The notes under the pieces were generated by a model that was given only the letters and a program-made list of their open reading frames with translations, ran no database searches and was not told where the DNA came from. DNA of 64,000 nt. Origin: Selaginella moellendorffii (Eukaryota; Plantae; Lycopodiophyta). The stretch covers positions 1,844,672 through 1,908,671 of the forward strand of contig NW_003314268.1 in NCBI RefSeq assembly GCF_000143415.4, given 5' to 3'. The position numbers and the translations under genes were made by a program. The stretch's first letter is position 1. The number at the start of each line of letters is the position of its first letter. Of this stretch, positions 33,586 to 63,340 are shown piece after piece.

Positions 33586-34755
33586 TGTGAGACACAAAAT
33601 TCCTAGGCTCCAAAGTGGAGCCGAAAGGGTGCCACGTGGTAGTGGCCGAAGCGAAGGCCAAACAAACGTACACGTTTGGACTGAAAACTCTGACTTGAAA
33701 GGTCAAGAGCGGGAGTGGAACTCCCAACAAAATGCTTGAGGAACAAGCACGAAACGAGCAATAAGTGAGGCTCCAAAAAGGAACCCAAAAAGGACCAACA
33801 CATGACACGTGGAAGTGTCCGAGATGGAGTCCGAGATGGACCCGAGTTGAAGTCTGAGATGGAGTCCGAGATGGGCCGAGATGGAGCCCGAGATGAAGTC
33901 CGAGATGGACCGAGACGGAGTCCGAGATGGAGTCCGAGATGAAGTCCGAGATGGACCGAGACGGAGTCCGAGATGGAGTCCGAGATGGAGTCCAAGATGG
34001 AGTCCGAGATGGAGTCTGAGATGGAGTTTGAGATGGACCAAGACGGAGTCCGAGATGGAGTCCAAGAGGGATCCGAGATGGAGTCCGAGATGGACCCAAG
34101 ATGGAGTCCGAGATGGAGTCCAAGATGGACCGAGACGGAGTCTAAGATGGAGTTTGAGATGTACTTGAGATGGAATCCAAGATGGAGTTCGAGAGGGACC
34201 CAAGATGGAGTCCAAGGTCAAGACCGAGACCAGGACCAAGACCGAGCCCGAGCCTGAGTTCGAGTCCGAGTCCGAGTCCGAGTTCGAGTCTTAGAGGGTG
34301 AAAGCCCAAAATGTTCGTCTCCCAGACCCTGGGGGGTTTGGTGAGCTCCAAAAGTATAGTAAGGGGGAGGACTGCAGTGGAGCCAGTTTGGCTAGGAAAG
34401 GCTAGTTTGGCCCAGGAAGGCTGTACTCAGTGTTGGGTGATGAGCTGCCCACTGGGAAGTCCAAGACTAGAGTGAATACGGACCGACAAGCGGGGTAGCT
34501 TGGTGAAGTGTTCAAGAGCCGGCTCTAGTTCCCCCGGGAGATCGAATGGCCGATGCTCCCAATCCAAGTGTGGGTGGCACTACCTACTTGGATACCAAAC
34601 GTGGCTCAACGGAACCTCGCTCTAAGCCCATGGCTAGAGCACCTAAAGGTGGAAAGCGGGAAGAGTACCCATGAGGCTCGCGTAAGGCCACGGTGTTCCG
34701 AAATGTTGTCTCAAAGGTCCAGACTGTGGAAAGGAAGAGGAGTAGTCCTCTGGTA
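33586..34755. repeat. Family L2 LTR truncated at the terminus of element copy A
   Basis: TGTGAGACAC start, long minisatellite, colinear with 31090-~32165 until 34755. Confidence 0.9.
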
Positions 34756-35321
34756 AGCTCTATTTCGTTAAAGTGGGATTTATTCAGTAAAATGGGACTA
34801 GGTACAAATTTTCAAGTATTTGAAAATGACATGAAATTATATGTTTTTTGTCCAAGGGCTAGACATATCTGGGGCATGGTGACTAGCGCAGTGACTTTGT
34901 GTCCAGACTGAGTCCATCTGGTTGTATAATAAATCTCATTGTCAAGGTGAACAAGCCGAATCTGACAGACATATAACTTAATGGTGAGAACATTTAGATA
35001 TTATTCAATGTTATCTTTTTCTAACGAATCTAATTGTGAAGGTGTAGCAAGAGGCATTGCTAGTCTGGAGAAGTCATTTAACTCATTTGACCCTTAGTGT
35101 ATTTTCATGAAACTAAATAACATTCATATTATTAAGGAATTTCTCTAGTACCTTTTTTTTTACGACATAGAGGCTTGCATTTCTTTCAAAGGTGATTTAG
35201 TAAAAGGCCTGAGGGCACATGCCATTCTATTTCTCAGACCGGTATTAAGATATACTAATGCAAAGGGAAAAAGGTATTTGGTGATCAAGTAAATGGCATG
35301 AGGGCACACGCCATTATAAGC

Positions 35322-35579
35322 CTAAGCGCTAGTGGACACCTCCTTTTTGGTACTCTCAGCGGTACTATCATCCTTCTCCAGGTCAATTGTTTTGCTTTGG
35401 ATTGTTGTCTCTGACGTTACTGGGGCGTTTTCGATAGTTGTTAATGTTGCCGTTTGTTCAGAAAAATGATCACCTGGAGTATAGTACGGGGAGTTTGGAA
35501 GACTTATATATTCTACATCTTCACCTATCTCCTTCTCCGTCTCCTTTTCTGCCTCACTTACAGATTTTGTGCTTGCCAT
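35322..35579 (-). CDS. Small acidic Ser/Thr-rich ORF or exon (85 aa), unknown function
   Basis: Open in all three copies (35322, 49748, and 60497-60754 on +). Preceded by acceptor-like ATTTTAG. Confidence 0.4.
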   Translation of the reverse strand: MASTKSVSEAEKETEKEIGEDVEYISLPNSPYYTPGDHFSEQTATLTTIENAPVTSETTIQSKTIDLEKDDSTAESTKKEVSTSA

Positions 35580-36292
35580 GAGAACGCTCTTCACCCTAAA
35601 ATATGGAGTTCATTGTGTTATTAAAGGAAACCAACACACACGCTGCAAGGGAATGATGGTACATAAAGCACGTAAGCCCACAATATGGGTTTATGTGCCA
35701 TTAATATGGGCCACACGCCATATTATTAGATTTATGCACGTGAGATTGGTAAATGCATATGTCACATCATCTTTGTTTTACCTCACACACTATATCAGGC
35801 CTAATGAACCATATCACATGTGCGCACATGCTATATATATGGAGAAGTATTATGCAAGGATAGAAAAATTCAATGCATGATTGTGGAGAGCAATGGCATG
35901 AAGCCACATGCTAAATAACATTTTAGAGAAAGAATTAAAATAGAAACATGCAAACAGTACTGAGTGGACCAAGACTTAGAAGTGCACAATTGAATGAGGT
36001 ATTTCTAATAAATATTTCACTCACCTCATATAGGAATGGCTACCACTCTCAAATGGCGTATCGCCTCATGCCATCACCTTGCAATTTGTTATAACAATCC
36101 GATGAATTCATATTCGGCTTGTTCACCTTGAACTTTAAGTAAGATTTGCTAGAACAACTAAGAATTTATACTTGTTATTTGTATCATCTCACCTAGGAAT
36201 GGCATAAGGCCACATGCCATCACGCCTCCTCTGATTCAGATTCGGATTGTTCACCTTGAAATAAAATACATTAGAAACTTAGTAAAGGAATA

Positions 36293-39118
36293 TTAATGAA
36301 TCTCACCTTGAACCCGGGTTATGAATGCTCTTGCTGCATCTCTTGCATGGTCTGGCAAGGTGATGGTGGCACTCTGCTTCCGCATCCAACCATGCACAAC
36401 ATTATCCACCGATATGCTCACGCTGGGATCCCTTGGATTCAGCACCCATCTCTTTTCTAGGCAATCCTTCGTATATTCGGAACTTGGCTTGAACCACTCC
36501 ACAGTTACATTGAAGGAGTTAGTTTCCGCGTCCTCCTCTACATCAGTGATGCAGCGCCCCACCCATATCATTTGTTTTTTATTACTGGGTCTGACAAGCA
36601 CGACCATTCCTTTGCAGACCTGTACTAGATTGAATGCTGAATCTGGCTTCTTGTTCCTCGGCCCACAATAGTGATCCTCAACATCGTTATCTGTCACTGC
36701 ATTTCCAGAGGACATTGTTCTGCTACTATCTGGTGCTCTGGGTTCTGGCCAAAAGGACTCTTCCAATTCTTCATATACAACCGGCCCATTTTGGATAGCA
36801 GATATAATCTTCTCCCAGTATTCGAGCAAAGGCTTGCACCTCTTAAAATAGGATTCTCCACCAAACACCAACCCCCTCTTCCAGAAGGCAATATGCTGTC
36901 TAATCCCGGCCACTATACTTTCCTGGTCTTTGAGTCCATCCGGGTGCATCGGCCGTGGGGAACCCTGAGGAATCATAGGTTCCCCAGTTATGGGATCTCT
37001 CTTGAAGAGTTCAATGCCGTCCACTGGCAGCCACACTATGTCCCATTCTCTCATCTTGTACCCCATCACTGGAGCACCGTCACGCATGCTGAAATGAAAC
37101 TGAAGAGGCTTGGAGTGGCCAATCAGCGTTTCAGATCCGTCCCTAATGTAGCCTCTTACAAACCCCTTAAAGTCTGGAACCTCTGTCACAAGTGCAGCTT
37201 CAACAGTGCCTTTGATGCAATTTTGGAATTCATCGTAGAGTTGTGGGAGGGTGAGGACATTGGATCGCCGGAGGGACTCTGCTAGGTGACTGAACATGGC
37301 ATTGACGTCTTCATGAGTGTGCCCAACCATGAGAAAGCCAAGTGTAACCGTTTCAAATATGCCTTTGGCAACAAGCATCGCCAAGTACGCGAAGACGTAC
37401 ATGTTTTTGTTCTCACTGCCAGCATTGTCTGTTTGGAGCAGAAGATGGGGTGGAAGGCCACATCAGCCGCAAGAACTTCCTTGAGATTCTGCTTCGTTTG
37501 GATGAGGCTGTGCATTCACCGGGCGACCAGCCTCGTCGAAATGGCATGAGGCCTCACGTGATAACCCTACAATTTGACGGCCAACATATTCACTGGGATG
37601 GCATTGGGCCCCACGCGATACTGCAAGCCTTTGCTCCTCCTCCAGCTGAACCCTGTATGGGGTTCGATCGACAAGGGCCTTATGCAAGGGTTGGCCGTTC
37701 AGCTTAGTCTGCGCACTTTGCAGAGACCTTAAGTGTTTTGCTAGGGACGCAATCATCATGTTTGCACCCCCGCCACCCCATAGAGGTACAAAGAAGTTCC
37801 CATAGTTCTGGGCACTATGCCCATGAGCAATTATGCCAAACAGAGACACAGGCAGCTGCATGGATGAAGAGATTGCCTTGGGGGCAGGATTGAGTCAAGG
37901 TAAGCACGTCTTTTTCTGGTCCATTTTGTCGTGGATGATGCAGAGGTAAGAGTTAGGTCTCTCCATGGAGAGAATCCTGTTATGATAATATGCAGTTCTA
38001 CAGCTTCTCTGCTCGATGTTGTGGTCGAGCCGCCTTCTAACCAACATTTCTCGCTCTTGAGCGCTGCAAGAATTCTTCGACAAAGCCATTTTGATAGCAG
38101 TGCACTCGTCACACTTTGAAAAGCTGGAGTACTTTCCTATACTCACATCCCTGAACCTGTTGCTCCACAATCTACTAAATCTAGATTGGCTCAGCTTCCT
38201 GTAGCCATTACTCTGGAGTTCCCGATTCACATCTTCCAATATAGCCCCCTTGGTATACATGGAAGGGAGAACTCGTTGGGTGTCTCGTGTTCCATCTTCC
38301 AAGAGGCGGGTTTTATGTGGTTGCTGCTCGCTACATGTCTCGACAAACCTCTTGAAGATTGCCTCTCGATATACAACATGACCCCTGGTTTTGTGCGTAC
38401 CGTCATTCCCATGGACTGCCTGTTGAACCCTTTGTTCCTCGAACTCAGTTTTGATTCTGTAGAATGTGGTTCGAGGGACTCCATAAATGATTCTCCATGC
38501 CTTCATGCAGACCAAACCCCTCTGGAAGACCATGCCCCCCACCTGATGTTCTGAAGCATCAACAGATGACCGTAATGCCTCATACACAAAATTGCGAGCT
38601 GCCTTCCAGGACAATGTCTTGTATCTTGCTCTCTCCTCTTCAATAGCATCCCAATCAGCATGTTGATAGCACCTCCTCTTGCAACAAGCAACTGTCGAGA
38701 CCATTCGAACCTCCATCGCCATTTTCTACCTTTTCGGTTCGTTGCTCAGATCCCTTTAGCTGCACTTTAGGAAGGTGTACTTTCTTTTCCCATGAAGAGA
38801 TGTTCTGTCATTAGTTGTAGTGGTGTTTGATTGTGAATCCTTCACATTCTCAAACACTAAGTGCCTCAATTTCCACCGCACAATGCTTCCAATAGTCAGA
38901 CTGTTTTCTTCTGTGTCAACAACCTCTAAAATCGCAACTCCAATATCATCCCAGCCCAATTCTTGATTAGCAACCGCATCTCTTGGATCGACAACTGTGG
39001 CTAAGCCCTCAACTACCACCTCCCCCTCGGGGTTGTTTAGAAACACCTTTGCCTGAATCCATGTAGTATGGTTCTTAAGATCCATGGAGGGAACATGCGT
39101 CGCACTTGCGGAGGCCAT
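36293..39118 (-). pseudogene. Sola-like/DUF7869-type DDD transposase, copy A (3 nonsense codons, 243-bp in-frame N-terminal deletion)
   Basis: One frame across ORFs 38756-39118, 37895-38722, 37463-37861 and 36293-37402. Motifs CCKRRC, VCMKAW, FSKCDEC, IIHDKMDQKK, LQTDNAGSENKN, FLMVGHTHEDVN. Confidence 0.85.
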
Positions 39119-41209
39119 TCTGAAAGTGTAGAAAAGAAGTTAAGACCATATAAAAAATGATTGGAGAATGGCCTAAATCATAACATACCAAACAACCTCA
39201 ATAGCATGAGGCCACATGCCATTATTCAAACATGCTATTGACACCCACGTGAAATTTCACATTCACAAAATTGGCATGAGCCCTCATGCCATCTTGATAA
39301 ACACACAGCTACAGGCAAGTAAAGAAACTATTGGCAATATGCTAGTGATGAACTTGCAAGGCCCAAGATGGCATGAGCCCTCATACCATTAGTGGTATCG
39401 TAGCGCCGCTCGCACCACCGCAACTGCTCGTAGCGCCGCTTGCACAAACTGCCACTCGCATAAACTGCCGCTCGCAATGGCGCTCGCAATGCCGCAACCG
39501 CTCGTAGACACATAAACCACAGCTCACAATGCCGCTTACACAAGCAGCGCTCACTATGCTCAGCGGAACCAGCGGAACCATCGATCCAGCTGTGCCATGT
39601 TAGTGATTCGAACTTTGCCATGCCGTGTCAGCGATCTGCGCCAAGATTATTCGCCGTGTAAAGGAATAATTATGCTGTGTGTGTACATCCATTTATGGCA
39701 ATATAAGGCCACACGCCATTCAAAGAATAATGCTAGTCAAGCATTTTTTGGTGCATTTTTTGGTTCAAAATTGCATGAGCCCACACGCTATAAGTTTACC
39801 TGTACCAAAAATAGAAACAGCTTTATTTACTTGGGAATTTAAGTGGTTGAGGCATTTTTAAACTTACAAACACATGCCCTACTTACATTCCTTTGGTTGC
39901 TTAAAATTCAAAACTATTATAAACCTTTCTTTTTGCATTTTCAATGTTTTCAATTATGGTTTTTGATTTTTACAAGACCAGCCTAGTAATCTATTTGCAT
40001 CCCATCATGTTTATAGCTAGCTTTCGTTTGTCCCCTTCGCTAGCCTGAGATACATCTACTCGACATCTGCCTCTTACAGCATTTGCCCAGAAAGGGCATC
40101 TTTCTTCACGCAGCATTTGCCACATATTTAAGGAGGGTTTAGGGTTTAGCAATTCAGTAGCTTGATAAACATGCAAATACAGAACTTGATGCAAAATCCT
40201 TTGATATGTCACAATGCCCCTAGGACCATAAACACATTTCAATAGAGAGGGTCCTTTCATTTCATAACTCCTTACGTAGATCTTGGTGAAACCAGAGTTA
40301 GTGAAGTTGGTTTTTTGTGATCCTGCATCTAATTGTGATGTCCCTTTGCAGTGTCGATGGAAAGGTCAATGTACAACAAACTGTAGAATCTTGGAGCAAA
40401 ATAACGGTCGGATCTATGGCAAATGCCCCTGAAACATTGTAAGGCTCGTGTGGTCTCATGTGGTGTCCGATCGAGATGCTTCTTTGCAGGGTCATCAAGA
40501 AGGACATTGTATACCATTCTTTATTTAGCTGAACATCTTGCATTTTTGGAAATACAAGATGCTTTGGAATATCCAATCATGCATGGTATAAATATAGCGA
40601 GGGTATTAAATGATATCCCAATCATGATCTTTCTTTTGGATTTCGCGTGCATGCAGTCCGAGGAATGATGACGTTGCGGATTTCTTTTGGATTTCACGTG
40701 CATGCATGCGCGCGGCGATCCAGAAATTAATGGTGGCGCCCAAGTCCAAGGAATAATGACGTGGTGGGATTACCAACCGTCGTGACATTTCGCGCGTATG
40801 AGGTTAGGTTTTGCATTTTGCTTCGTACTCACGCTCGCATCGCGCTCCCACTCGCGATCACGCTCACATTCGCGCTCATCTACCTTCTCTACAGGTTTCT
40901 CGTGTGCATCGGCGTCCACTCGCGCTTGCATCACACTCGCGCTCGCATCGCGCTCGTGTGCATCGGCATCCACTTCAAGACACACCCAGTTTGTAACTTC
41001 GCCGCCAACTCCGCCGCCCACTCCGCCACCCACATGCAGCCCACTTGGCGTCCCGGGAGATTTCAGTGCCACTCTCCAACTGTAAGTGGCAGAGTAGCCT
41101 TGCTGCTACGATCCGCTGCACACATAGTGCACATTTGCCAGCGAGTCCGGCCTCGATTGTTACGCCTCCATTTGGCTTCAAATGGTAAGTCTTTTAGGCC
41201 AAGTAGAAA

Positions 41210-41231
41210 ATGGCATGAGGCCACATGCCAT
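41210..41231. repeat. Type copy of the dispersed 22-bp palindrome ATGGCATGAGGCCACATGCCAT
   Basis: Further copies in copy A near 35204, 35293, 35706, 35893, 36053, 36199, 37541, 37598, 39201, 39271, 39369, 39700, 39771, 41288, 41347, 42624, 42943, 44020, 44095, 45331, 45486, 45622, 45880, 46016, 46111, 46216 and 46357. Orthologous sites occur in B and C. Confidence 0.95.
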
Positions 41232-41423
41232 TCAGTAGCAACATTGGCATGCACCGATTGGGCTCTCGAGTGCAGTCCGGTTACAGATGGCGTGTAGCCT
41301 CACGCCATCTTAGGATGCAGCCTCAAGACATCTGATGCAGTGGTGAATGGCGTGTGGCCTCACGTTATTTCCAGCTGCTAGCTTTTCATCTGTCAGCTCT
41401 AATTGTTGTGCATTTATGAACAG

Positions 41424-42780
41424 GCGAGGAATTGCGTTCTTCTTCCAGCCACTGTCAATGTGGATGCAGAGAAGGGGGAGGAGCTCACTAGTTGGACTTT
41501 CGGGATGGAAGGCGAGGATTTGAGGCTGTACAACACAGATGGTGGGAGAAAAGAATGCATGGGGATCCTCATCCAAGTGACAGACACTCCATGCAGTTCC
41601 ATGCAAGAATATGGACTGGCACTTGTGGTAGAGACAGCGTCCGCCTTCAAAATCCACCTTGCACATCGTAGCGGCTTCCCGGAGGGGGGCAACGGCTATG
41701 AGGAATTCCTAGAGGGAGCTAGGGAGAGGTTGTCCAGGAGGCCCACAATTTCAAAGATGCTGCGGGTCTATGAAGATCACATGGAATCCACGGACCTCAC
41801 CTACGGCGATATTCAAAAACTATATTCCAACATTGAGCCGTTGCGAGTGACTCCAGTTCGCGAAGCGAAGGGGAAGGGGGTCGATCTGGAAACTACCCCG
41901 AAGCAGAAAAGGGTGGTCAAGCTCAAGCCGACGTCCGACTCTCCTGCTCCAAAAAAGAAGCTACCCGGTGATGCCATTGCCTCGGGTTCGAACACTACAC
42001 CCACCAAAAACAAGAGCCGTAAAGAGCAGAAAGAGCAAGAAGAGGCAGCAAAAATCGTCACAGATAATAGTACTTGTTACTATTCCAACAAAGTATATAC
42101 AATCGACGTGAGCCACATTGACATCCAAAGCAAATACAACCACAGGCTTGTATCTGATGAGTGGGTGGAGAAACTGAAGCAGAAGATGCTGGCAAGTCCA
42201 GTAACACCCGACATTGCAGACGTGATCCCCTACTACTGAACAATGAAGGGCGAGACGAGGTTTCCAGACTTGATCAATAGGAAGGTGTTGGACGATCAGA
42301 ACATCCGGTTCTATGCCGTCTCCAGGCAGCATTTTAGCTTGGCGATGCAAGAGATAGTTGTGGATATTATGGTGGGCGAGGAGGTGAAGAAAGTCTTCAA
42401 GACAAGAGTTGTCCACCTGATAAAAGGCAACTCGCCCCTCCGATCTATCATATACATCTCCCACACGCAGAATGTCAAGCAAGAAACGTGCTACAAATTG
42501 GGTTTACACGAGACATTGGCACGAACACGGAAGCTCTGGGTTCAACTGAAGAAGCCACAAAAACCAGGACAAGGACGTGCACTAGAAACTAGCGCCTGGC
42601 AGGTAAGCCTCGTTGCATGTGGCATAGCATGTGGCCTCACGCCATTTCCATTGCAGGAATTCTCGAGTCTTCTCTCGAAAACACTGAGGGTCAATGACAC
42701 ACTCAGCATCCATAACATTCTACTCGCGACAAAAGTTGTTTTTGACAAATGGGTAGATGTGCTGAGGAGGTACCATGACA
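41424..42780 (+). pseudogene. Multi-domain gene, 5' half (contains the ParB/Srx-like domain), copy A
   Basis: IDVSHIDIQSKYNHRLVSDEWVEKLKQKM...FYAVSRQHFSLA resembles the ParB N-terminal R-x-x-D/E-x-x-V-x-x-L and Y-x-I-D-G-x-H-R boxes. Intron 42603-42656. TGA at 42237 where copy C has CGA. True start codon uncertain. Confidence 0.6.
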
Positions 42781-42998
42781 ATATTGGCTCAGTTGCTCCG
42801 AGTCTAGATGGAGCCCAAGTCCCCATTCAATCTTTACTTTCCCCTTATTAATAAAACAACTTCGTAGACTTCCAATAATATGTTGTAACACTTCTAGTAT
42901 AATGCAAATCCTTTCAAAGAATTGTCTTTTAATATTAATACAATGGCATGGAACCCCATGCCATAATAAGTTACATTTTTAACTAAATACATGCCATC

Positions 42999-45900
42999 TC
43001 AGACTGTTATTTTTTGCCTCCAACGCCTATACAATAATCTTGGAATTTCATCACTCTCCACACTATCAGGATTTAAACCCAATAGTAATGCCATCTCTTC
43101 TCTAATACATCCACGCTCATGTTCAGTGATCGAAGAACCCATCCAGTTGAGCAGATTATGGAGATGCGGATAGTGCTTGGCTAGACAATATACATGCCAT
43201 AAATGATGACTGGTGTCTGTCCGATCAAATGGCTTCTGATATACCGTTCCATCTGCCATTTGGTTGATTTCTGCTGCCACCTCCTGGACTGGCCGGTTCT
43301 CTATCACCATCGCTCCAAGCCGTTTTGCAAGGTCCCCCAGAACATACGGTTTCTTCTCCCTAGTTTCCATACTGCAAGAGATGGGGTGCACTGCATATGT
43401 GTGCGTGTTCGCTGCAGTTTTAATCAGCGAGTCATCGATGATGAGGATTTCACTTGACCTAGCAATCCGGTTCATCACTACAGCCTCTAGCTTGACGAAG
43501 ATGGGCTTGCTACCCCTCACATGGACCATAGTCAAGCAATCCTCCTACGTTAGGAGAAAGTCAAATGGTAATATTACTTGCGTCTGATTGTGCATCATCT
43601 GTAGCAACGTTAATGCATTGTGGCGCATCATGGATGTCCAAACTCCCAATTGCAAATTGAACCCAGCCCTCTGTTTTAAGTGTCGCATGGTCATTATTAG
43701 ATCCCGCAGTTTCTCCCGTGTGATTAATGTGAATCTGTCTCTTTTGACCAACTTGCGACCGCAGGCTTTGGAGGGTGCAGTGACATTCGAGGACGAGCCA
43801 CGCTCATGGGAGAAAAGGACACCGTTCAGATCAATAATGATACAGTACCTTTGCCGTGACTCTGAAATGAAATGCGTCAGCATAAAAAATGGTACAAGTC
43901 AATTTTACCATCTACAATATTAGCGAATGGTGCTCCCGATGGTCGTTGAGAGGGTTTTGGTCGAGGAAACGTGAAGGGCGCAAATACTCTCCTCTGCAAT
44001 GTGGGGTCAATCGCATCCGATGGCGTGTGGGCACATGCCATTTCAGCTGTAGACTCTGGTACAACTGGCTCAATAGTGGCATGGGGTGGTTCTGATGGCG
44101 TGTGATCACACGCCATTTCAGTTGGTGCCTCCGTTGGCAAAGTGGACATGACCGAACAGGCAGCAAGGGCGGTGTAGGGAGGTTCCAACGGCGCATAGTC
44201 AGACGATTGGGCACACGTTGAGTCCGTTGGAAATGAGGATACGACCGGCTCGACGGCTGGGGCGGCCTCATGCGGGTCCAATGGCGCCTGGTCACCGTCA
44301 GTTGGATACGTGGACAAGATTGACTCAGTGGTATGGGCAGCATCAAGTGGAGCGTGGTCAGCTTGCTTGGCGTTGATATGGATAGTAGCCTCCACCAGTT
44401 CTGATGACTCTTGCAGGCAAGTAGAGTCCACTGGCGGATCCATATGCATGTCCAAATATCTCCCTTCGATTGAGATGGTATCCTCCCGTGCTACTAAAAA
44501 CAAACTCATTAGCACATTGAATTGACTATACTGTATTTACCATCAACTGCTATTGAGGAACTAGGACCAATATCACTTGGGTGCACTACTGATTCTAAAG
44601 GATTGAACATACGTTTCGACCCTTGCTTGGCACTATCCTTCCTCGACACTAAAGGCTAGAGTTTGTATCTTAATTCAACTGAATAATCTCTACTTACCAT
44701 TTGCTCTGCGACCTACATGGACAATGTTAGAAATGGTAAAAGGTTAGGAATGGATGTACTATTATTTACCTGATGGTTTGTCTTGTATGACCTTCCTCCG
44801 CTGCTCTTTGGCCACCTCAGGCTGGCCATCGTCGTCATCATCGTCGTCGTCGTTATTGTGATCGTCACCATTGTGAGGACCATCCAAGTCCTCTTCGTCC
44901 TCCTCTTCTTCGTCCTCCTCTTCTTTGTCCTCCTCTTCGTCCTTCTGCTCTTCCTGCTCATTATCTTTCTCTGGCTCCTTATCCCCCTCCTACATTTCTT
45001 CCATAGGCTGCTCAGGCTGGATGGCTTGTTCTTCCAGGACCATCTTGGGAAAATCATCTGGCCCAATCTCCATCTCAAAATACAAGACATCCATAGCCTG
45101 TTTTAGTGCGTGACCTAGGACCATATCCTCACCCGACTGTCTTAACATGGTTTCTGCACGTTCTTGCACCCTTCGAAGACGACGAGATGAGAAAAACGTG
45201 GCCCTGACTTGAAAAGCATCCCTCATCCATTGTACCTCTCCATTGAGATTGGGGAAGGGGAGTCCACCATAGGAATCTGAGTCAGGAGGTGGTGACTGGC
45301 TGCTTTCACTCAGCCCTTGATCTGCAATGAATGGCATGAGCACACACGCCATAACCGTGAGGCATTACCTATCATCTTTTCATTGCCCTTCTTCCTTTTC
45401 GAATCAAACGCCTCTGATCCCGACGACTGTCCAACGTGCTTTCGCTTTTTATGACCACTGTCAGTTTGAGCTTGATCTGCAAGAAATGGCATGAGGACCC
45501 ACGCAATAACCATGACGCTTTACTTCCCGTCCTTGGAGGCTCTGTCGTGCCTTCGGCATCCTCAGGTGCCTGCTCCTCAATTCCCTTTCGCTTTCGTTTT
45601 TTATGCACCCGTTCTACAGAAATAGCATGAGGACATACGCGATAAGCATACAAATGCTTTTACCCTTCCTCCTCTGCCCTGGTCGGTTGTCCATCTCTTT
45701 GTCTACAGCGTCTGAAAGTTGTTTTGTAGGTAGCCTAATTCAAGGTTCACGACATCTCCTTGGCACTTGAACTGTATATTATTGCATCAACACATGCAAC
45801 ATCCCATAATATTTTTAAGTTACCTTTCATAAAGTTTTCCATTGGTTCAACTCGTTCCCCTGAAATACAAACTTAGATAAGTGCATAGGGCCATATGTCA

Positions 45901-47720
45901 TGATCGTACCTGTTTCGGAACTCTCCTTATCACTCTTCGAGGCCTCCCCCTCCTCCACTGGAGGCACGTTGTTCCGTTCGATTTCCTCGATGCGATCTGC
46001 AAGAACATTAGTTAATTGAGTGGGGCCACACGCCATCAAACCTTCAGGTTCTTGTCGTGAGGTCTGCGCTGCTTGCCTTAGTCTCTTTGGAATTTGAGCT
46101 GCAAGAAGCAATGGCATGAGAATTCACGTATAACAAAAATGATTGGTACCTCTCGTCCGTTGTACTTGGCTGGTGCTTGCTTGTTTTGCCTTTGAAGAAG
46201 TGTCTCCTGCAAGGAATGGCATGAGACCACACGCCATTGCAAATATAATTTGTACCTCCTTTTTTCCTATTGCTTGTCTGTTTGTCCTTCTTCGATGCGC
46301 CACCAGTGCGCTTTTCAGTCCTCGTGTCTGAATATTCACAACGATCTATAATCAAAATGGCGTGAGGCCTCACGTGACCTTACCTTGTGCAAGTTGTGAG
46401 CTCGGCCCAACATGGGTATCTTCAACAGTAGCTGTTAACACCGTTTCAGCATCTGGGGGTGGCCACACTCCTGCATACAGAGCTTGTGAGATAACATTTA
46501 AACTTAAAGTGCGTACTCACTAGGTTCGCAGAGAAGATACTATTTTTCTTTGGCAACTGTAATTATATGCTCCATTGAAGTCACCTCTTCAATGGAGTTT
46601 GTCACCGCAACACACGGGACACCCTTGAGTAGTGCGGCTTGAAACAATAGTCCGCCGCAGTTGTACTCGACAACGCATTTGCCCTTGGAGTCGGAAGCAG
46701 GTGACCCACCCACTATTGCGTTGAAGACCCAGTTGAGCATTTCCCATGCTGCACCTGGAGCTTTCTCTGGATTCGAAAGCTCCATAGCCGTCTTCAGTTC
46801 CTCAGGCACGGGTAAATTGACCTCCCTCAGATCAATTCGATCGGCCTTGTCGAATGAAGCTGGGAAGTCACTCCAGTCCCACTCTGCTGCAGGACCAATA
46901 ACAAGGGCGAGTGTGAAGATGCGGACATTCGTCGGTATCTTCTTCTTAGCCATTATCCCATGGATCTCCCGCATCTCTTTGCCTTTCAACCGAGCCTTCA
47001 CCTCGTTCAAGGCCTTCCAGAACTTGTGATAGGATTCGGAGTCATAGATCATATAGTGGACTGAAGATTCCACCTCTACAAGTCCCACCATTAAGTCAAT
47101 GATGGAGCTGACTTCGTCTGCATGAGTGATCTCCTCGTTTGTGAAGTCCATCACACAAAAGATGTTCTTGACCTGCTCATCTCCGCGGGAAACGATGCTC
47201 CTCCACCTTTGATCCTCATCTGAATTCACGTATACCCAGTAAGGTTCTCGATAAGCCTCTGCTGCGGGGTTGAGCTGTTTCTGAAGCCGGCGGTCGACAT
47301 CCCTCTTAATGAAATTTGGATACTGATCCAACTTCTCAGCTTTACTTTTCGTGGCATCCCGCAGCAGATCGATGAACTTGGGGGCCCCCTTCACGTACTT
47401 GTCGATGTCTTCATTTGACAACTCCAGCTCTTCCATCATCTCTTGCGTGGTGTCGATCCTCACCCTCTCCACGGCCACTTGCTCGAAGATCCAATCCTTC
47501 AATAGTGCACGAGCTCTCAGAGTCGTGCACAAGTCCTCGTATGTCATAATATGGCCGGGAGTCATTTTGGTCTTGTTGAAGACTACCTCACCACGTAGAA
47601 GAGCATTAGCCACTGTCAGAAGGTCGTCGTCGTCTAGAGACCGCGAGAAACGCAAGGCGTTGAGCTTCAAATCATTGGGCTTCCGGCCGTCCTCCACACC
47701 CATTGAGTTTAGCAACTCCC
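42999..47720 (-). pseudogene. Multi-domain gene, 3' half (helical region, degenerate amino-MTase-like domain, multi-exon linker, FCP1/NIF HAD phosphatase), copy A, inverted
   Basis: Copy C shows YHD|RELLN contiguous. Phase-1 GT-AG introns keep one frame from ~46520 to 43862. C-terminal IIIDLNGVL...GVWTS...KPIFVK...LIIDDSLIK...HP motifs. Confidence 0.7.
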
Positions 47721-48484: not shown

Positions 48485-49088
48485 TGTGAGACACAAAACC
48501 CTAAGCTCCAAAGTGGAGCCAAAAGGGTGCCACGTGGGAGTGGCCGAAGCGAAAGCCAAATGAGCGTAACACGTTTCAACTAAAAGGCTCCGACTTGAAA
48601 ATTCGAGAGCGGGAGTGGAACTCCTAATGAAGTGCTCAAGAAACGAGCATGAAGTGAGCAATAAAAGAGTCTCTAGAAAAAGGACACTAGATGGAGTCTG
48701 AAATGGAGTCTGAGATGGACCCGAGATGGAGTCCGAGATGGATCCAAGATGGAGTCCGAGATGGAGTCCGAGATAGACCCGAGATGGAGTCCGAGATGGA
48801 CCTGAGATGGAGTCCGAGATGGACCCGAGATGGAGTCCGAGATGGACCTGAGATGGAATCCGAGATGGACCCAAGATAGAGTTCGAGATGGACCTGAGAT
48901 GGAGTCTGAGATGGAATCTGAGATGGAGTCCGAGAAGGACCAAGACCGAGACCGGGACCGAGACCGAAACCGAGACCGGGACCGAGACCGAGACCAAGGC
49001 CAAGGCCGAGACCGAGCCCAAAGCCCAAGTCCAAGTCCGAGTCCAAGTCTGAGTCCAAGTTTGAGTTTGAGAAGGTAAAAGCCCAAAA
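48485..49088. repeat. Family L2 LTR truncated at the terminus of element copy B
   Basis: TGTGAGACAC start plus minisatellite, ending at AAAGCCCAAAA. Confidence 0.9.
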
Positions 49089-50718
49089 AGCTCTATTTCG
49101 TTAAAGTGGGATTTATTCAGTAAAATGGGACTAGGTACAAATTTTCAAGTATTTGAAAATGACGTGAAATTATATGTTTTTTGTCCAGGGGCTAGACATA
49201 TCTGGGGCATGGTGACTAGCGCGGTGACTTTGTGTCCAGACTGAGTCCATCTGGTTGTATAATAAATCTCATTGTCAAGGTGAACAAGCCGAATCTGAAG
49301 CTAAAGAAGAGCGATGGCATGCGCGCACACACTATTTGTTTGTTCATTGAGCATGTGGTGAGCTTTCCAAGATGAACGTCATTCCTATTAGCCAGACATA
49401 TAACTTAATGGTGAGAACATTTAGATATTATTCAATGTTATCTTTTTCTAACGAATCTAATTGTGAAGGTGTAGCAAGAGGCATTGCTAGTCTGGAGAAG
49501 TCATTTAACTCATTTGACCCTTAGTGTATTTTCATGAAACTAAATAACATTCATATTATTAAGGAATTTCTCTAGTACCTTTTTTTTACGACATAGAGGC
49601 TTGCATTTCTTTCAAAGGTGATTTAGTAAAAGGCCTGAGGGCACATGCCATTCTATTTCTCAGACCGGTATTAAGATATACTAGTGCAAAGGGAAAAAGG
49701 TATTTGGTGATCAAGTAAATGGCATGAGGGCACACGCCATTATAAGCCTAAGCGCTAGTGGACACCTCCTTTTTGGTACTCTCAGCAGTACTATCATCCT
49801 TCTCCGGGTCAGTTGTTTTGCTTTGGATTGTTGTTTTTGACGTTACTGGGGCGTTCTCGATAGTTGTTAATGTTGTCGTTTGTTCAGAAAAATGATCACC
49901 TGGAGTATAGTACGGGGAGTTTGGAAGACTTATATATTCTACATCTTCACCTATCTCCTTCTCCGTCTCCTTTTCTGCCTCACTTACAGATTTTGTGCTT
50001 GCCATGAGAACGCTCTTCACCCTAAAATATGGAGTTCATTGTGTTATTAAAGGAAACCAACACACACGCTGCAAGGGAAATATGGTACATAAAGCACGTA
50101 AGCCCACAATATGGGTTTATGTGCCATTAATATGGGCCACACGCCATATTATTAGATTTATGCATGTGTGATTGGTAAATGCATATGTCACATCATCTTT
50201 GTTTTACCTCACACACTATATCAGGCCTAATGAACCATATCACATGTGTGCACATGCTATATATATGGAGAAGTATTATGCAAGGATAGAAAAATTCAAT
50301 GCATGATTGTGGAGAGCAATGGCATGAAGCCACATGCTAAATAACATTTTAGAGAAAGAATTAAAATAGAAACATGCAAACAGTACTGAGTGGACCAAGA
50401 CTTAGAAGTGCACAATTGAATGAGGTATTTCTAATAAATATTTCACTCACCTCATATAAGAATGGCTACCACTCTCAAATGGCATATCGCATCATGCCAT
50501 CACCTTGCAATTTGTTATAACAATCCGATGAATTCATATTCGGCTTGTTCACCTTGAACTTTAAGTAAGATTTGCTAGAACAACTAAGAATTTATACTTG
50601 TTATTTGTATCATCTCACCTAGGAATGGCATAAGGCCACATGCCATCACGCCTCCTCTGATTCAGATTCGGATTGTTCACCTTGAAATAAAATACATTAG
50701 AAACTTAGTAAAGGAATA

Positions 50719-53700
50719 TTAATGAATCTCACCTTGAACTCGGGTTATGAATGCTCTTGCTGCATCTCTTGCATGGTCTGGCAAGGTGATGGTGGCACTC
50801 TACTTCCGCATCCAACCATGCACAACATTATCCACCGATATGCTCATGCTGGGATCCCTTGGATTCAGCACCCATCTCTTTTCTAGGCAATCCTTCGTAT
50901 ATCCGGAACTTGGCTTGAACCACTCCACAGTTACATTGAAGGAGTTAGCTTCCGCGTCCTCCTCTGCATCAATGATGCAGCGGCCCACCCATATCATTTG
51001 TTTTTTATTACTGGGTCTGACAAACACGACCATTCCTTTGCAGACCTGTACTGGATTGAATGCTGAATCCAGCTTCTTGTTCCTCGGCCCACAATAGTGA
51101 TCCTCAACATCGTTATCTGTCACTGCATTTCCAGAGGACATTATTCTGCTACTATCTGGTGCTCTGGGTTCTGGCCAAAAGGACTCTTCCAATTCTTCAT
51201 ATACAACCGGCCCATTTTGGATAGCAGATATAATCTTCTCCCAGTATTCGAGCAAAGGCTTGCACCTCTTAAAATAGGATTCTCCACTAAACACCAACCC
51301 CCTCTTCCAGAAGGCAATATGCTGTCTAATCCCGGCCACTATACTTTCCTGGTCTTTGAGTCCATCCGGGTGCATCGGCCGTGGGGAACCCTGAGGAATC
51401 ATAGGTTCCCCAGTTATGGGATCTCTCTTGAAGAGTTCAATGCCATCCACTGGCAGCCACACTATGTCCCATTCTCTCATCTTGTACCCCATCACTGGAG
51501 CACCGTCACGCATGCTGAAATGAAACTGAAGAGGCTTGGAGTGGCCAATCAGCATTTCGGATCCGCCCCTGATGTAGCCTCTTACAAACCCCTTAAAGTC
51601 TGGAACCTCTGTCACAAGTGCAGCTTCAACAGTGCCTTTGATGCAATTTTGGAATTCATCGTAGAGTTGTGGGAGGGTGAGGACATTGGATTGCCGGAGG
51701 GACTCTGCTAGGTGACTGAACATGGCATCGACGTCTTCATGAGTGTGCCCAACCATGAGAAAGCCAAGTGTAACCGTTTCAAATATGCCTTTGGCAACAA
51801 GCATCGCCAAGTACGCGAAGACGTACATGTTTTTGTTCTCACTGCCAGCATTGTCTGTTTGGAGCAGAAGATGGGGTGGAAGGCCACATCGGCCGCAAGA
51901 ACTTCCTTGAGATTCTGCTTCGTTTGGATGAGGCTGTGCATTCACCGGGCGACCAGCCTCGTCGGAATGGCATGAGGCCTCACGTGATAACCCTACAATC
52001 TGACGGCCAACATATTCACTGGGATGGCATGGGGCCCCACGCGATACTGCAAGCCTTTGCTCCTCCTCCAGCTGAACCCTGTATGGGGTTCGATCGACAA
52101 GGGCCTTATGCAAGGGTTGGCCGTTCAGCTTAGTCTGCGCACTTTGCAGAGACCTTAAGTGTTTTGCTAGGGACGCAATCATCATGTTTGCACCCCCGCC
52201 ACCCCATAGAGGTACAAAGAAGTTCCCATAGTTCTGGGCACCATGCCCATGAGCGATTATGCCAAACAGAGACACAGGCAGCTGCATGGATGAAGAGATT
52301 GCCTTGGGGGCAGGATTGAGTCGAGGTAAGCACGTCTTTTTCTGGTCCATTTTATCGTGGATGATGCAGAGGTAAGAGTCAGGTCTCTCCATGGAGAGAA
52401 TCCTGTTATGATAATATGCAGTCCTGCAGCTTCTCTGCTCGATGTTGTGGTCGAGCCGCCTTCTAACCAACGTCTCTCACTCTTGAGCGCTGCAAGAATT
52501 CTTCGACAAAGCCATTTTGATAGCAGTGCACTCGTCACACTTTGAAAAGCTAGAGTACTTTCCTATACTCACATCCCTGAACCTATTGCTCCACAATCTA
52601 CTAAATCTAGATTGGCTCAGCTTCCTGTAGCCATTACTCTGGAGTTGCCGATTCACATCTTCCAATATGGCCCCCTTGGTATACATGGAAGGGAGAACTC
52701 ATTGGGTGTCTCGTGTTCCATCTTCCAAGAGGCGGGTTTTATGTGGTTGCTGCTCGCTATATGTCTCGACAAACCTCTTGAAGATTGCCTCTCCATATAC
52801 AACATGACCCTTGGTTTTGTGCGTACCGTCATTCCCATGGACTGCCTGTTGAACCCTTTGTTCCTCGAACTCAGTTTTGATTCTGTAGAATGTGGTTCGA
52901 GGGACTCCATAAATGATTCTCCATGCCTTCATGCAGACCAAACCCCTCTGGAAGACCATGCCCCCCACCTGATGTTCTGAAGCATCAACAGATGACCGTA
53001 ATGCCTCATACACAAAATTGCGAGCTGCCTTCCAGGACAATGTCTTGTATCTTGCTCTCTCCTCTTCAATAGCATCCTAATCAGCATGTTGACAGCACCT
53101 CCTCTTGCAACAAGCAACTGTCGAGACCATTCGAACCTCCATCGCCATTTTCTGCCTTTTCGGTTCGTTGCTCAGATCCCTTTGGCTGCGCTTTAGGAAG
53201 GTGTACTTTCTTTTCCCATGAAGAGATGTTCTGTCATTAGTTGTAGTGGTGTTTGATTGTGAATCCTTCACATTCTCAAACACTAAGTGCCTCAATTTCC
53301 ACTGCACAATGCTTCCAATAGTCAGACTGTTTTCTTCTGTGTCAACAACCTCTAAAATCGCAACTCCAATATCATCCCAGCCCAATTCTTGATTAGCAAC
53401 TGCATCTCTTGGATCGACAACTGTGGCTAAGCCCTCAGCTACCACCTCCCCCTCAGGGTTGTTTAGAAACACCTTTGCTTGAATCCATTTAGCACGGTTC
53501 TTAAGATCCACGGAGGGAACATGCATCACACTTGCGCTGTCCCCAACATCTGCTTTCTTCTGAAGATTTTTCAAGGCAACAACAACATTTACCCCGACAA
53601 CCATCTCTCCTCGTTCAATAGCGACCACATTCCCATCGAAGACAGTCTCTACTGATACAGCAGCATTGCCTTCCCCAAGCCTTTGACAGTGTATAACAAA

Positions 53701-53787
53701 GTTCCGATCCATAGACACAAGGGTCCCTTTTGCAACTCTCTTCCCACCATTCAAAATGTAAACCTTTTCCCCAACCCTGAAGGCCAT
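50719..53787 (-). pseudogene. Sola-like/DUF7869-type DDD transposase, copy B, 1022 codons with 4 nonsense codons
   Basis: ORFs 53077-53787, 52699-53040, 52477-52686 and 50800-52470 are in one frame. Candidate triad HDKMD / TDN / GHTHEDVD. Two tandem N-terminal VAxG...LG...V repeats. Confidence 0.88.
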
Positions 53788-55051
53788 TCTGAAAGTGCAG
53801 AAAAGAAGTTAAGACCATACAAAAAATGATTGGAGAATGGCCTAAATCATAACATACCAAACAACCTCAATAGCATTAGGCCACATGCCATTATTCAAAC
53901 ATGCTATTGACACCCACGTGAAATTTCGCATTCACAAAATTGGCATGAGGCCTCATGCCATCTTGATATACACACAGCTGCAGGCAAGTAAAAACATACA
54001 TGACAATACGCTAGCCATGAAATTGCAAGGGCCCAAGATGGCATGTGGCCTCATGCCATTTCTAAATGTGGTCGTAAGCCATTCCATGGTGAACATACCA
54101 GGAAGCACAAGTGCCGAATATCAAGAGGAAGCGGTAGCCACACCAAAGACAGTGCCGCTCGCAACACCGCAACTGCTCGTAGCGCCACTCGCACAAACTG
54201 CCACTCGCATAAACTGCAGCTCGCAATGGCGCTCACAATGCCGCAACCACTTGTAGACGCATAAACCACAGCTCACAACGTCGCTTACACAAGCAGCGCT
54301 CACTGCACTCAGCGGAACCAAGAACACGGCGCACAAAAATGATAGACCTAGGAATGAGTTCGAGAAGTCAAAAATAACACACGCTTGAACGTCACATCAA
54401 ATCCTCTGACAAACCAGATCTTATGATTCCTCTGACAAATTTCAAACTGAGTAGCTTCTAGACTTTGCTATCGGAGGTTGAACTTTGTCACATCATGTCC
54501 TTGCCTCGATCCAGCTGTGCCATGTTAGTGATTCGAACTTTGCCATGCCGTGTCAGCGATCTGCACCAAGATTATTCGCCGTGTAAAGGAATAATTATGC
54601 TGTGTGTGTACATCCATTTATGGCAATATAAGGCCACACGCCATTCAAAGAATAATGCTAGTCAAGCATTTTTTGGTGCATTTTTTGGTTCAAAATTGCA
54701 TGAGCCCACACGCTATAAGTTTACCTGTACCAAAAATAGAAACAGCTTTATTTACTTGGGAATTTAAGTGGTTGAGGCATTTTTAAACTTACAAACACAT
54801 GCCCTACTTACATTCCTTTGGTTGCTTAAAATTCAAAAATATTATAAACCTTTCTTTTTGCATTTTCAATGTTTTCAATTATGGTTTTTGATTTTCGCAG
54901 GACCAACCTAGTAATCTATTTGCATCCCGTCATGTTTATAGCTAGCTTTCATTTGTCCCCTTCGCTAGCCTGAGATACATCTGCTCGGCATCTACCTCTT
55001 ACAACATTTGCCCAGAAAGGGCATCTTTCTTCACGTAGCATTTGCCACATG

Positions 55052-55077
55052 TTTAGGGTTTAGGGTTTAGGGTTTAG
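55052..55077. repeat. Interstitial plant telomeric repeat / telo-box (TTTAGGG)x3.7
   Basis: TTTAGGGTTTAGGGTTTAGGGTTTAG. Shorter version at ~40134-40149 in copy A. Confidence 0.8.
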
Positions 55078-56549
55078 CAATTCAGTAGCTTGATAAACAT
55101 GCAAATACAGAACTTGATGCAAAATCCTTTGATATGTCACAATGCTCCTAGGACCATAAACACATTTCAATAGAGAAGGTCCTTTTATTTCATAACTCTT
55201 TACGTAGATCTTGGTGAAACCAGAGTTAGTGAAGTTAGTTTCTTGTGATCCCGCATCTGATTGTGATGTCCCTTTGCAGTGTCGATGGAAAGGTCAATGC
55301 ACATCAAACTATAAAATCTTGGAGCAAAATAACGGTCGGATCTATGGCAAATGCCCCTGAAACATTATAAAGCTCGTGTGGTCTCATGTGGTGTCCGATC
55401 GAGATGCTTCTTTGCAGGGTCATCAAGAAGGACATTGTATACCATTCTTTATTTAGCTGAACATCTTGCATTTTTGGAATTACAAGATGCTTTGGAATAT
55501 CCAATCATGCATGGTATAAATATAGCGAGGGTATTAAATGATATCCCAATCATGATCTTTCTTTTGGATTTCGCGTGCATGCAGTCCGAGGAATGATGAC
55601 GTTGCGGATTTCTTTTGGATTTCACGTGCATGCATGCGCGCGGCGATCCAGAAATTAATGGTGGCGCCCAAGTCCGAGGAATGATGACGTGGCGGGATTA
55701 CCAACCGTCGTGACATTTCGCGCGTGTGAGGTTAGGTTTTGCATTTTGCTTCATATTCGCGCTCGCACACTCGCGCTCGCATCGTGCTCCCACTCGCGAT
55801 CACGCTCACATTCGCGCTCATCTACCTTCTCTACAGGTTTCTCGTGTGCATCGGCGTCCACTCGCGCTTGGATCACACTCGCGCTCGCATCGCGCTTGCA
55901 TCGCACTCGTGTGCATCAGCGTCCACTTCAAGACACACCCAGTTTGTAACTTCGCCGCCAACTCCGCCGCCCACTCCGCCACCCACACGCAGCCCACTTG
56001 GCGTCCCGGGAGATTTCAGTGCCACTCTCCAACTGTAAGTGGCAGAGTAGCCTTGCTGCTACGATCCGCTGCACACACAGTGCACATTTGCCAGCGAGTC
56101 CGGCCTCGATTGTCATGCCTCCATTCGGCTTCAAATGGTAAGTCTTTTAGGCCAAGTAGAAAATGGCATGAGGCCACATGCCATTCAGTAGCAACATTGG
56201 CATGCACCGATTGGGCTCTCGAGTGTAGTCCGGTTACAGATGGCGTGTAGCCTCACGCCATCTTAGGATGCAGCCTCAAGACATCTGATGCAGTGGTGAA
56301 TGGCGTGTGGCCTCACGTTATTTCCAGCTGCTAGCTTTTCATCTGTCAGCTCTAATTGTTGTGCATTTATGAACAGGCGAGGAATTGCGTTCTTCTTCCA
56401 GCCACTGTCAATGTGGATGCAGAGAAGGGGGAGGAGCTCACTAGTTGGACTTTCGGGATGGAAGGCGAGGATCTGAGGCTGTACAACACAGATGGTGGGA
56501 GAAAAGAATGCATGGGGATCCTCATCCAAGTGACAGACACTCCATCCAG

Positions 56550-58766
56550 TGGGAAGTCACTCCAGTCCCACTCTGCTGCAGGACCAATAACAAGGGCGAG
56601 TGTGAAGATGCGGACATTCGTCGGTACCTTCTTCTTAGCCATTATCCCATGGATCTCCCGCATCTCCTTGCCTTTCAACCGAGCCTTCACCTCGTTCAAG
56701 GCCTTCCAGAACTTGTGATAGGATTCGGAGTCATAGATCATATAGTGGATTGAAGATTCCACCTCCGCAAGTCCCACCATTAAGTCAATGATGGAGCTGA
56801 CTTCGTCTGCATGAGTGATCTCCTCGTTTGTGAAGTCCATCACACAAAAGATGTTCTTGACCTACTCATCTCCGCGGGAAACGATGCTCCTCCACCTTTG
56901 ATCCTCATCCGAATTCACATATACCTGGTAAGGTTCTCGATAGGCCTCTTCTGCGGGGTGGAGCTGTTTCTGAAGCCGGCGGTCGACATCCCTCTTAATG
57001 AAATTTGGATACTGATCCAACTTCTCAGCTTTACTTTTCGTGGCATCCCGCAGCAGATCGATGAACTTGGGAGCCCGCCTCAGATCCTCGTCAATGTCTT
57101 CATTTGACAACTCCAGCGCTTCCATCATCTCTTGCGTGGTGTCGATGCTCACCCTCTCCACAGCCACTTGCTCAAAGATCCAATCCTTCAATAGCGCACG
57201 AGCTCTCAGAGTCGTACACAAGTCCTCGTATGTCACAATATGGCCGGGAGTCATTTTGGTCTTGTTGAAGACTACCTCACCACGTAGAAGAGCATTAGCC
57301 ACTGTCAGAAGGTCGTCATCGTCTAGAGACCGCGAGAAACGCAAGGCGTTGAGCTTCAAATCATTGGGCTTCCGGCCGTCCTCCACACCCATTGAGTTTA
57401 GTAACTCCCTGTCATGGTACCTCCTCAGCACATCTACCCATTTGTCAAAAACAACTTTTGTCGCGAGTAGAATGTTATGGATGCTAAGTGTGTCATTGAC
57501 CCCCAGTGTTTTCGAGAGAAGACTCGAGAATTCCTACAATGGAAATGGCGTGAGGCCACATGCTATGCCACATGCAACGAGGCTTACCTGCCAGGCGCTA
57601 GTTGCTAGTGCACGTCCTTGTCCTAGTTTTTGTGGCTTCTTCAGTTGAACCCAGAGCTTCCGTGTTCATGCCAATGTCTCGTGCAAACCCGATTTGTAGC
57701 ATGTTTCTTGCTTGACATTCTGCACGTGGGAGATGTATATGATAGATCGGAGGGGCGAGTTGCCTTTTATCAGGCGGACAACTCTTGTCTTGAAGACTTT
57801 CTTCACCTCCTCGCCCACCATAATATCCACAACTATCTCTTGCATCGCCAAGCTAAAATGCTGCCTAGAGACGGCATAGAACCGGATGTTCTGATCGTCC
57901 AACACCTTCCTATTGATCAAGTCTGGAAACCTCGTCTCGCCCTTCATTGTTCGGTAGTAGGGGATCACGTCTGGGATGTCGGGTGTTACTGGACTTGCCA
58001 GCATCTTCTGCTTCAGTTTCTCCACCCACTCATCAGATACAAGCCTGTGGTTGTATTTGCTTTGGATGTCGATATGGCTCACGTCGATTGTATATACTTT
58101 TTTGGAATAGTAACAAGTACTATTATCTGTGACGATTTTTGCTGCCTCTTCTTGCTCTTTCTGCTCTTTGCGGCTCTTCTTTTTGGTGGGTGTAGTGTTC
58201 GAACCCGAGGCAATGGCATCACCGAGTAGCTTCTTTTTTGGAGCAGGAGAGTCGGACGTCGGCTTGAGCTTGACCACCCTTTTCTGCTTCGGAGTAGTTT
58301 CCAGATCGACCCCCTTCCCCTTCGCTTCGCGAACTGGAGGCACTCTCAACAGCTCAATGTTGGAATATAGTTTTTGAACATCGCCATAGGTGAGGTCCGT
58401 GGATTCCATGTGATCTTCATAGACCCGCAGCGTCTTTGAAATTGTGGGCCTCCTGGACAACCTCTCCCTAGCTCCCTCTAGGAATTCCTCATAGCCGTTG
58501 CCCCCCTCCGGGAAGCCGCTAGGATGTGCAAGGTGGATCTTGAAGGCGGACGCTGTCTCTACCACAAGTGCCAGTCCATATTCTTGCATGGAACTGCATG
58601 GAGTGTCTATCACTTGGATGAGGATCCCCATGCATTCTTTTCTCCCACCATCTGTGTTGTACAGCCTCAGAACCTCGCCTTCCATCCCGAAAGTCCAACT
58701 GGTGAGCTCCTCCCCCTTCTCTGCATCCACATTGACAGTGGCTGGAAGAAGAATGCAATTCCTCGC
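56550..58766 (-). pseudogene. Multi-domain gene in copy C (ParB-like domain through part of the MTase-like domain, 3' truncated)
   Basis: ORFs 57666-58787, 56862-57431 and part of 56367-56843. Uninterrupted across the point where copy A is broken. Confidence 0.7.
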
Positions 58767-62913: not shown

Positions 62914-63340
62914 TGTGAGACACAAAATCCCTAGGCTCCAAAGGGGAGCCAAAAGGGTGCCACATGGTAGTGGTGGAGGCAAAAGCTAAATGAGCGTAAC
63001 ACATTTGGACTAAAAGCTCCAACTTGAAAAGTCGAGAGTGGGAGTGAAACTCCCAATGAAGGACTCGAGGAACGAGCATGAAATAATCAATAAGTGAGTC
63101 TCCAAAAAAGGGACACAAAAGGACCAATATATGACACATGAAAGTGTCCAAGATGGAATCTAAGATGGACCCGAAATGGAGTCTGAGATGGACCCGAGAT
63201 GGAGTCCGAAATGGAGTCCGAGATAGACCTGATATGGAGTCTGAGATAGACCCGAGATGGAGTCCAAGATGGACCTGAAACCAAGACCAAGACTGAGTCC
63301 GAGTCCGAAACCGGGACCAAGACCAAGTCCGAGTCTTGGA
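62914..63340. repeat. Truncated family L2 LTR
   Basis: TGTGAGACAC start plus a short minisatellite. Confidence 0.85.

Follow-up and report, generated by a model that had tools for sequence, protein, structure and literature searches.

Does the segment between positions 41,424 and 47,720 hold the remains of one long gene or of two, and to what kind of genetic element does it belong? A preliminary description of this DNA, from Selaginella moellendorffii, had rebuilt a single gene here with a ParB-like part, a pseudo-methyltransferase (MTase), a disordered linker and an FCP1-like phosphatase. We analysed the whole 64-kb stretch (hereafter the window), which is repeat-rich eukaryotic DNA with LTR-retroelement debris. 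With a probability of about 0.55, we read the locus as a copy, now decayed and in part inverted, of a Sola1-like transposon's accessory gene, likely a single spliced gene whose product would bind palindromes and regulate its own element. The status of transposon accessory gene and the palindromes go beyond the preliminary description.

Element copies and the inverted segment

Self-alignment revealed three pieces of one element in the window (copies A, B and C, Table 1), with 96-98% identity over most segments and 92% in two short ones. In this repeated element, the accessory gene lies head-to-head with a gene encoding a DUF7869 transposase, which is probably of the Sola1 type. The motifs HDKMD, TDNAGSENKN and GHTHEDVD are found in this transposase; at the third presumed catalytic Asp, copy A (36293-37462) reads EDVNAMF, versus EDVDAMF in copy B. 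A search of metagenomes detected transposase relatives at four loci (45-60% identity), and a viral scan with the transposase returned 0 loci. The accessory gene is absent from all four related loci (L079-L082).

The left ends of the three copies, at 34755 (+), 49088 (+) and 61415 (-), all start with AGCTC, and the 4-mers before them (GGTA, AAAA and TTTA) are all A-terminal. Neither a right end nor a TIR partner was found within the window, and a target duplication is thus invisible there. All three left ends abut one family of LTR-like repeats, which contain tandem arrays of 11/12 bp and 6 bp (13850-14300, 31300-31680, 33800-34300, 48690-49075, 61500-61780 and 63100-63340). Joined at 56550, copies B and C make up a composite in inverted arrangement (49088-61415) whose two left ends face inward; it is reminiscent of what alternative transposition yields, or of a misassembly. 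A 100-N assembly gap lies at 24355-24454.

Table 1. Location in the window of the element copies and of the parts of the transposase and accessory genes
Feature	Position	Strand	Details
Copy A	34755-47720		Self-alignment; transposase on -, accessory gene partly inverted
Left end of element, copy A	34755..34800	+	Begins AGCTC; sits in LTR-like repeat after a 4-mer ending in A
22-bp palindrome, dispersed	35204..46378		ATGGCRTG-WGSSCW-CAYGCCAT; 22 sites in copy A at <=2 mismatches
DUF7869 (Sola1-like) DDD transposase, copy A	36293..39139	-	Decayed; Pfam PF25273, E 1.6e-38
Start ATG and phase-0 intron	ATG 41182-84; intron 41185-41423	+	Likely, from sequence; three palindromes in intron
Exon: N-terminal domain, K-rich spacer, ParB-like domain	41424..42602	+	Stop TGA 42237-39
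54-nt phase-0 intron	42603..42656	+	Contains a palindrome
Exon part ending VLRRYHD at inversion breakpoint	42657..42780	+
Last exon: NIF/FCP1-like HAD domain and helical tail	42999..43861	-	Stop TAG 43547-45
Low-complexity linker	43862..46520	-	14 exons of 9-585 nt, 15 phase-1 introns; stops 45742-40, 44992-90
694-nt stretch missing in other copies	45471..46164		4-nt CAAG microhomology; joint and depth drop in X1
Helical region and N6/N4-MTase-like region after breakpoint	46521..47720	-	Stop TAG 46542-40
Copy B	49088..56550	+	Left end, transposase, first 400 nt of accessory gene; tail-to-tail with copy C
DUF7869 transposase, copy B	50800-53808		Less broken than copy A; Pfam PF25273, E 2.5e-42
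Copy C	56550..61415	-	Left end, transposase deleted, accessory gene uninverted to 46861 equivalent

The rebuilt gene depends on a join between VLRRYHD (42780, +) and RELLNS (47720, -), which the preliminary description had obtained by undoing an inversion. This join was read directly in copy C, where VLRRYHD-RELLNS runs uninterrupted, and in eight contigs of the DNA run X1, which connect 42779 to 47721 on opposite strands. The letters of these contigs at the join give D-G-ELLN, with one base different and the frame unchanged, while the 42781 end continues with other letters in 15 X1 contigs. As X1 may come from the window's own sample, its contigs inform on other copies of the element and not on an independent genome. 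From these contig joins, the stretch 42781-47720 is flipped in copy A as assembled and the far end of the element has been lost. About 90 nt (47721-47809) extend from the inversion breakpoint to a reverse-transcriptase fragment.

Gene model, in-frame stops and number of genes

With the two parts joined, one frame is kept by a spliced model of 1,755 aa, where ~1800 aa had been announced. Judging from the sequence, the gene probably starts at a spliced ATG at 41182. Two phase-0 introns are followed by 15 phase-1 GT-AG introns of 45-63 nt. Phase, splice sites and the single frame down to 42999 thus agree with the preliminary description, but its count of 13 phase-1 introns does not, because one 204-nt intron of that count is split here by two micro-exons of 36 and 9 nt. 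Both score weakly (acceptors -2.1 and -1.4). The 15-nt micro-exon proposed earlier was recovered at 44712-44698 (-), and the peptide YLLCEP does follow TAG 46542-40 in frame, ahead of a GTGAGT donor at 46520.

From 46520 to 43862, each of the 14 internal exons has a length divisible by 3. Approximate generic weights were used in a blind dynamic-programming splice search, which scored the real strand at +58.8, i.e. about 8 SD above 60 dinucleotide shuffles, every one of which scored lower (-86±18, max -49.5); the opposite strand reached -121 or lower. Depending on which of six parameter sets was used, this search recovered exactly 11 to 13 of the 15 model introns. The composition of the linker also differs between introns (38% GC, 36% T) and exons (51% GC, 17% T). 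The two inserted micro-exons, the choice between the acceptors 46346 and 46328, and the stop-free 54- and 45-nt introns are uncertain; the intron at 42603-42656, which is in frame and free of stops, could be retained. A stop-free splice path, obtained under a high stop penalty, was rejected: it requires three to four additional weak introns, in differing phases, and is no longer found once the penalty is lowered. Splicing is proposed here from sequence features only, since no junction read was found in the RNA runs X23 (6 reads in ~12% of the run, none with a splice junction) and X24 (0 reads in ~12% of the run, which makes it no test of splicing). Contigs of a further run, X20 (guessed to be RNA, may be DNA), traverse the introns 45368-45322 and 43908-43862 unspliced. 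The linker, previously described as K/R-rich, acidic and Pro-rich, is indeed of low complexity by residue composition, with 12-28% of order-promoting residues over aa 801-1500 versus 34-43% in the domains.

We then considered the stops that interrupt this frame. The four named earlier (46540, ~45740, 44990 and 43545) are TAG, TGA, TAG and TAG, but the total is five: a further in-frame TGA at 42237-39 of copy A corresponds to CGA in copy C, and this one is due to decay. Each of the five could have arisen by a single C-to-T change at a CG or CHG codon, and none is TAA. Between copy A and the other copies, run X1 gave 77 differences, 53 of which are T-for-C or A-for-G; the 28 such changes listed with their context (12 CG, 6 CHG and 10 CHH) are enriched in CG/CHG, a bias that suggests a plant-like genome. 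The five stops compare with 2.3 expected from the decay rate (P about 0.08). We infer that the in-frame stops result from C-to-T decay.

Does the TAG at 46540 nevertheless separate two genes? A single gene is the best reading, and we hold it with good confidence. The alternative is a tandem of two genes, the first encoding an 828-aa protein with the ParB-like and MTase-like regions and ending at this TAG, the second encoding the linker and the NIF domain. It would agree with a stop placed where the MTase-like region has its natural limit and where a beta-class MTase domain usually ends, with a stop count slightly high for decay, and with the known Ectocarpus protein, for which only ParB and MTase domains are named in the available part of its description. 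We consider it unlikely. A phase-1 donor is found just 20 nt beyond the stop, and the next six exons (87, 72, 57, 57, 87 and 36 nt) keep the same frame and leave no space for a promoter. The frame stays open for 133 codons beyond the stop until the first Met, and that Met is gone in the deleted form of the gene. These six frame-keeping exons and the 133 codons devoid of in-frame Met are the main argument for one gene. The Pfam NIF match, which extends across the stop at 43545, was also counted toward it.

The deleted form was seen in X1, whose contigs join 45470 to 46165 and whose summed depth is ~60-fold lower over 45580-46027, depth being no measure of copy number. The 694-nt deletion takes out 399 exonic nt, i.e. 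exactly 133 codons, in frame, an outcome that has a 1-in-3 chance by itself. The locus would therefore encode one transcript and one protein of 1,755 aa, shorter by 133 aa in the deleted form.

That such a protein never functioned seems highly improbable to us. A host NIF fragment might have been captured behind a ParB gene, as in Pack-MULEs, giving a chimeric relic, with the rearrangements of copies A, B and C perhaps partly assembly artefacts; no expression was seen in the RNA runs (about 12% of each), no homologous fused protein was found in the databases searched, and none of the contigs listed spans copy A's own breakpoints. However, the frame is kept through 15 introns plus an in-frame deletion, and X1 depth is even over all domains, which indicates that these domains travel together in the element family.

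Predicted domains

The name ParB-like received good support: for the copy C equivalent of this region (about aa 220-365), ESM Atlas gave 0.96 to DUF3723-type eukaryotic clusters (191 of 256 features) and 0.91 to ParB_N. No match to this region was obtained in Pfam, PHROGs or PADLOC, and a look-up of DUF3723 in E. coli gave nothing informative. The CTP-binding box of the ParB CTPase clamp is GxxRxxA; in copy A it is missing its canonical form and reads VSRQHFSLA.

The pseudo-methyltransferase of the preliminary description stands as a lead only. In its favour, ESM Atlas scored the middle region 0.86, with N6_N4_Mtase as all ten of its ten best families, and the order of the motifs fits. Two profile tests were negative, however. 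An HMM of 37 MTase sequences failed on this region (its score was equalled or exceeded by 41 of 250 shuffles), and hhalign against the MTase profile gave no match. Of 38 YhdJ relatives selected for the HMM, 37 were used and one was dropped for an internal stop; the set was drawn from 75 loci after near-duplicates and partial or split matches had been set aside. Neither PF01555 nor any other Pfam family matched the middle region, and a metagenome scan with this domain found 0 relatives among 60 stretches. Beta-class MTases carry the motifs DPPY and DPFxGSG. Here both are degenerate, with MDFTN (identical in copy C) where DPPY is presumed and EYNCGG where DPFxGSG is presumed; the catalytic (D/S/N)PP(Y/F) and the SAM-binding FxGxG are absent from these presumed places.

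The C-terminus matched Pfam PF03031 (NIF) over residues 5-153, the query being a decayed copy with one X (E 3.2e-4). Its FCP1/NIF-like naming thus has moderate support, but the 20.9 bits fall just under the curated Pfam cut-off of 21.8. The HAD motifs of the last exon (DLNGVL, KPIF and IIDDS) follow the order DxxG...K...DDS of FCP1/SCP phosphatases. Unlike in these enzymes, DxDx(T/V) is not matched, since copy A reads DLNGV, with Asn as the second Asp, and the domain forms part of a transposon protein. Of 80 differences from the other copies, the 40 listed include none at this Asn.

Single-sequence AlphaFold models of the ParB-like and MTase-like regions reached a pLDDT of 34 and gave no usable fold. 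Word-index searches returned no protein relatives longer than the query. The two matches found in a representative protein library were both spurious repeat proteins and were discarded. Nothing useful came from PDB sequence searches, phage tblastn, NCBIfam, PHROGs or PADLOC.

Palindromes and possible role of the protein

The 22-bp palindrome is confined to the element. At <=2 mismatches, 47 sites were counted, 22 in copy A and 25 in copies B and C, and 0 in the other 38.7 kb of the window; at <=3 mismatches, copy A has 25 sites versus a mean of 0.19 in shuffles (max 2 of 100), the consensus being derived from the element itself. Within the gene, 11 of 13 sites (<=4 mismatches) are intronic, though introns make up only ~17% of its length. 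Seven of the 15 linker introns hold a palindrome, and the distance from palindrome end to acceptor is 8-12 nt at six intronic sites. This position suggests a duplication of exon/intron units, which would explain the uniform phase: the linker would have grown by duplicating phase-1 units, each with its palindrome. The Pro-rich exon contains two perfect palindromes (44020-44116), translated as the peptide repeat EMACxHTPS, and two further ones are found in the transposase region (37541 and 37598).

A different 22-bp palindrome is present in ten copies at one of the related loci, L082 (45% identity over the transposase core). These copies, at 18-356, 672, 2834 and 2917, form a 47-bp tandem array upstream of the transposase and otherwise occupy likely introns. 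No palindrome family was found at the other three related loci, two of which are AT-rich and near-alike.

These sites might serve the transposase instead, as binding or end-assembly sites, or be structural elements of the introns, and the protein of the same accessory gene might aid transposition or targeting. We regard this as possible but improbable. The array of L082 does lie upstream of the transposase, on a 3-kb contig that carries no accessory gene, the catalytic box of the ParB-like domain is non-canonical, and the six sites near acceptors may merely have been copied with their introns. On the other hand, the palindromes are spread across 11 kb of the element interior, with no clustering at the one visible end, and ParB-family proteins are described in the sources consulted as binding inverted repeats.

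A palindrome-binding self-regulator, the reading that we favour, could work as follows. The predicted ParB-like domain and the helical half would load on the palindromes in the manner of ParB at parS, and the MTase-like fold, possibly inactive, would bind without methylating. On its long flexible tether, the NIF domain would act on, or trap, a phosphorylated protein, for instance the CTD of Pol II. Both the MTase-like fold and the FCP1-like domain would thereby be brought to the element's own chromatin. Overall, the protein would, in trans, regulate its own element sequence-specifically or counteract its silencing, much as VANC acts for VANDAL.

Several known systems resemble parts of this arrangement. 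The Sola1-1_Ec32 transposon of Ectocarpus carries an opposite-strand gene for a 1,104-aa ParB and N4/N6-MTase protein, for which self-binding was proposed and an active MTase predicted; its 4-bp target-site duplication is biased toward a final A (PMC12477816). It shares with the present element a large DNA transposon host, an opposite-strand gene and the ParB-like region, perhaps also the N4/N6-MTase-type region; the 4-mers before the three left ends here likewise end in A. Set against what is described of it, rather than against its sequence, the protein studied here differs by its 1,755 aa, the lack of DPPY, the micro-exon linker, the NIF/FCP1-like tail and the intronic palindromes. VANDAL elements, in turn, are Mutator-like. 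In Arabidopsis, the sites recognised by VANC21 are family-specific motifs located in the introns and the intergenic DNA of its element (PMC5735166). The likeness concerns layout only, i.e. an accessory gene with variable exon/intron repeats and family-specific intron and intergenic motifs, whereas the VANC motif is 9 bp long and non-palindromic, and binding and demethylation were shown experimentally (PMC5735166).

In Bostrychia, Plavaka elements (accessory genes PAG2 and PAG3) encode ParB-oxygenase and MTase-SET proteins beside inverted repeats, and PAG3 has a ParB domain (bioRxiv 10.1101/2025.02.11.637652). There too, transposon cargo bears a ParB-like domain or PF01555, and inverted repeats are proposed as ParB targets. 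In contrast with the element studied here, the host is of the EnSpm/Plavaka type, ParB is combined with a 2OG oxygenase and the MTase with SET, and the repeats described form tandem arrays beside the gene, with none reported as dispersed in introns in the text available. ParB-MTase pairs derive from phage loci, and eukaryotic ParB-HTH/Dam fusions are known (PMC4738411). The ParB and amino-MTase pairing of phage terminase loci probably gave rise to the N-terminal half, although those described are active enzymes with no phosphatase and no introns (PMC4738411). A Repbase review, in its available part, only lists Sola1-3 (PMC4455052). In the openly accessible literature searched, we found no ParB-MTase-phosphatase fusion in a transposon and no such palindromes in Sola elements. 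A ParB and MTase gene opposite a Sola1 transposase was thus already known; the phosphatase-like tail, the degenerate MTase and the intronic palindromes appear to be new.

A broader proposal, which we advance only tentatively, is that Sola1-like transposons run a ParB/parS-style self-recognition. A family-specific 22-bp palindrome would be multiplied as micro-exon/intron units are duplicated in the gene encoding its own reader, and a dead MTase fold together with a CTD-phosphatase-like domain would shield or reactivate the element via Pol II phosphorylation rather than DNA modification. This would make a second anti-silencing system, unrelated to VANDAL/VANC.

Annotation at the level of open reading frames misses such cargo, which has no relative in the protein databases searched. 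The algal papers, in the parts available, proposed that ParB-bearing accessory proteins bind and modify their own element and named no defined Sola1 site. The present element puts forward a precise candidate sequence, has a relative whose site differs, and offers a domain swap in which MTase motifs would have been lost and a phosphatase-like domain gained. The idea of self-binding thus becomes directly testable.
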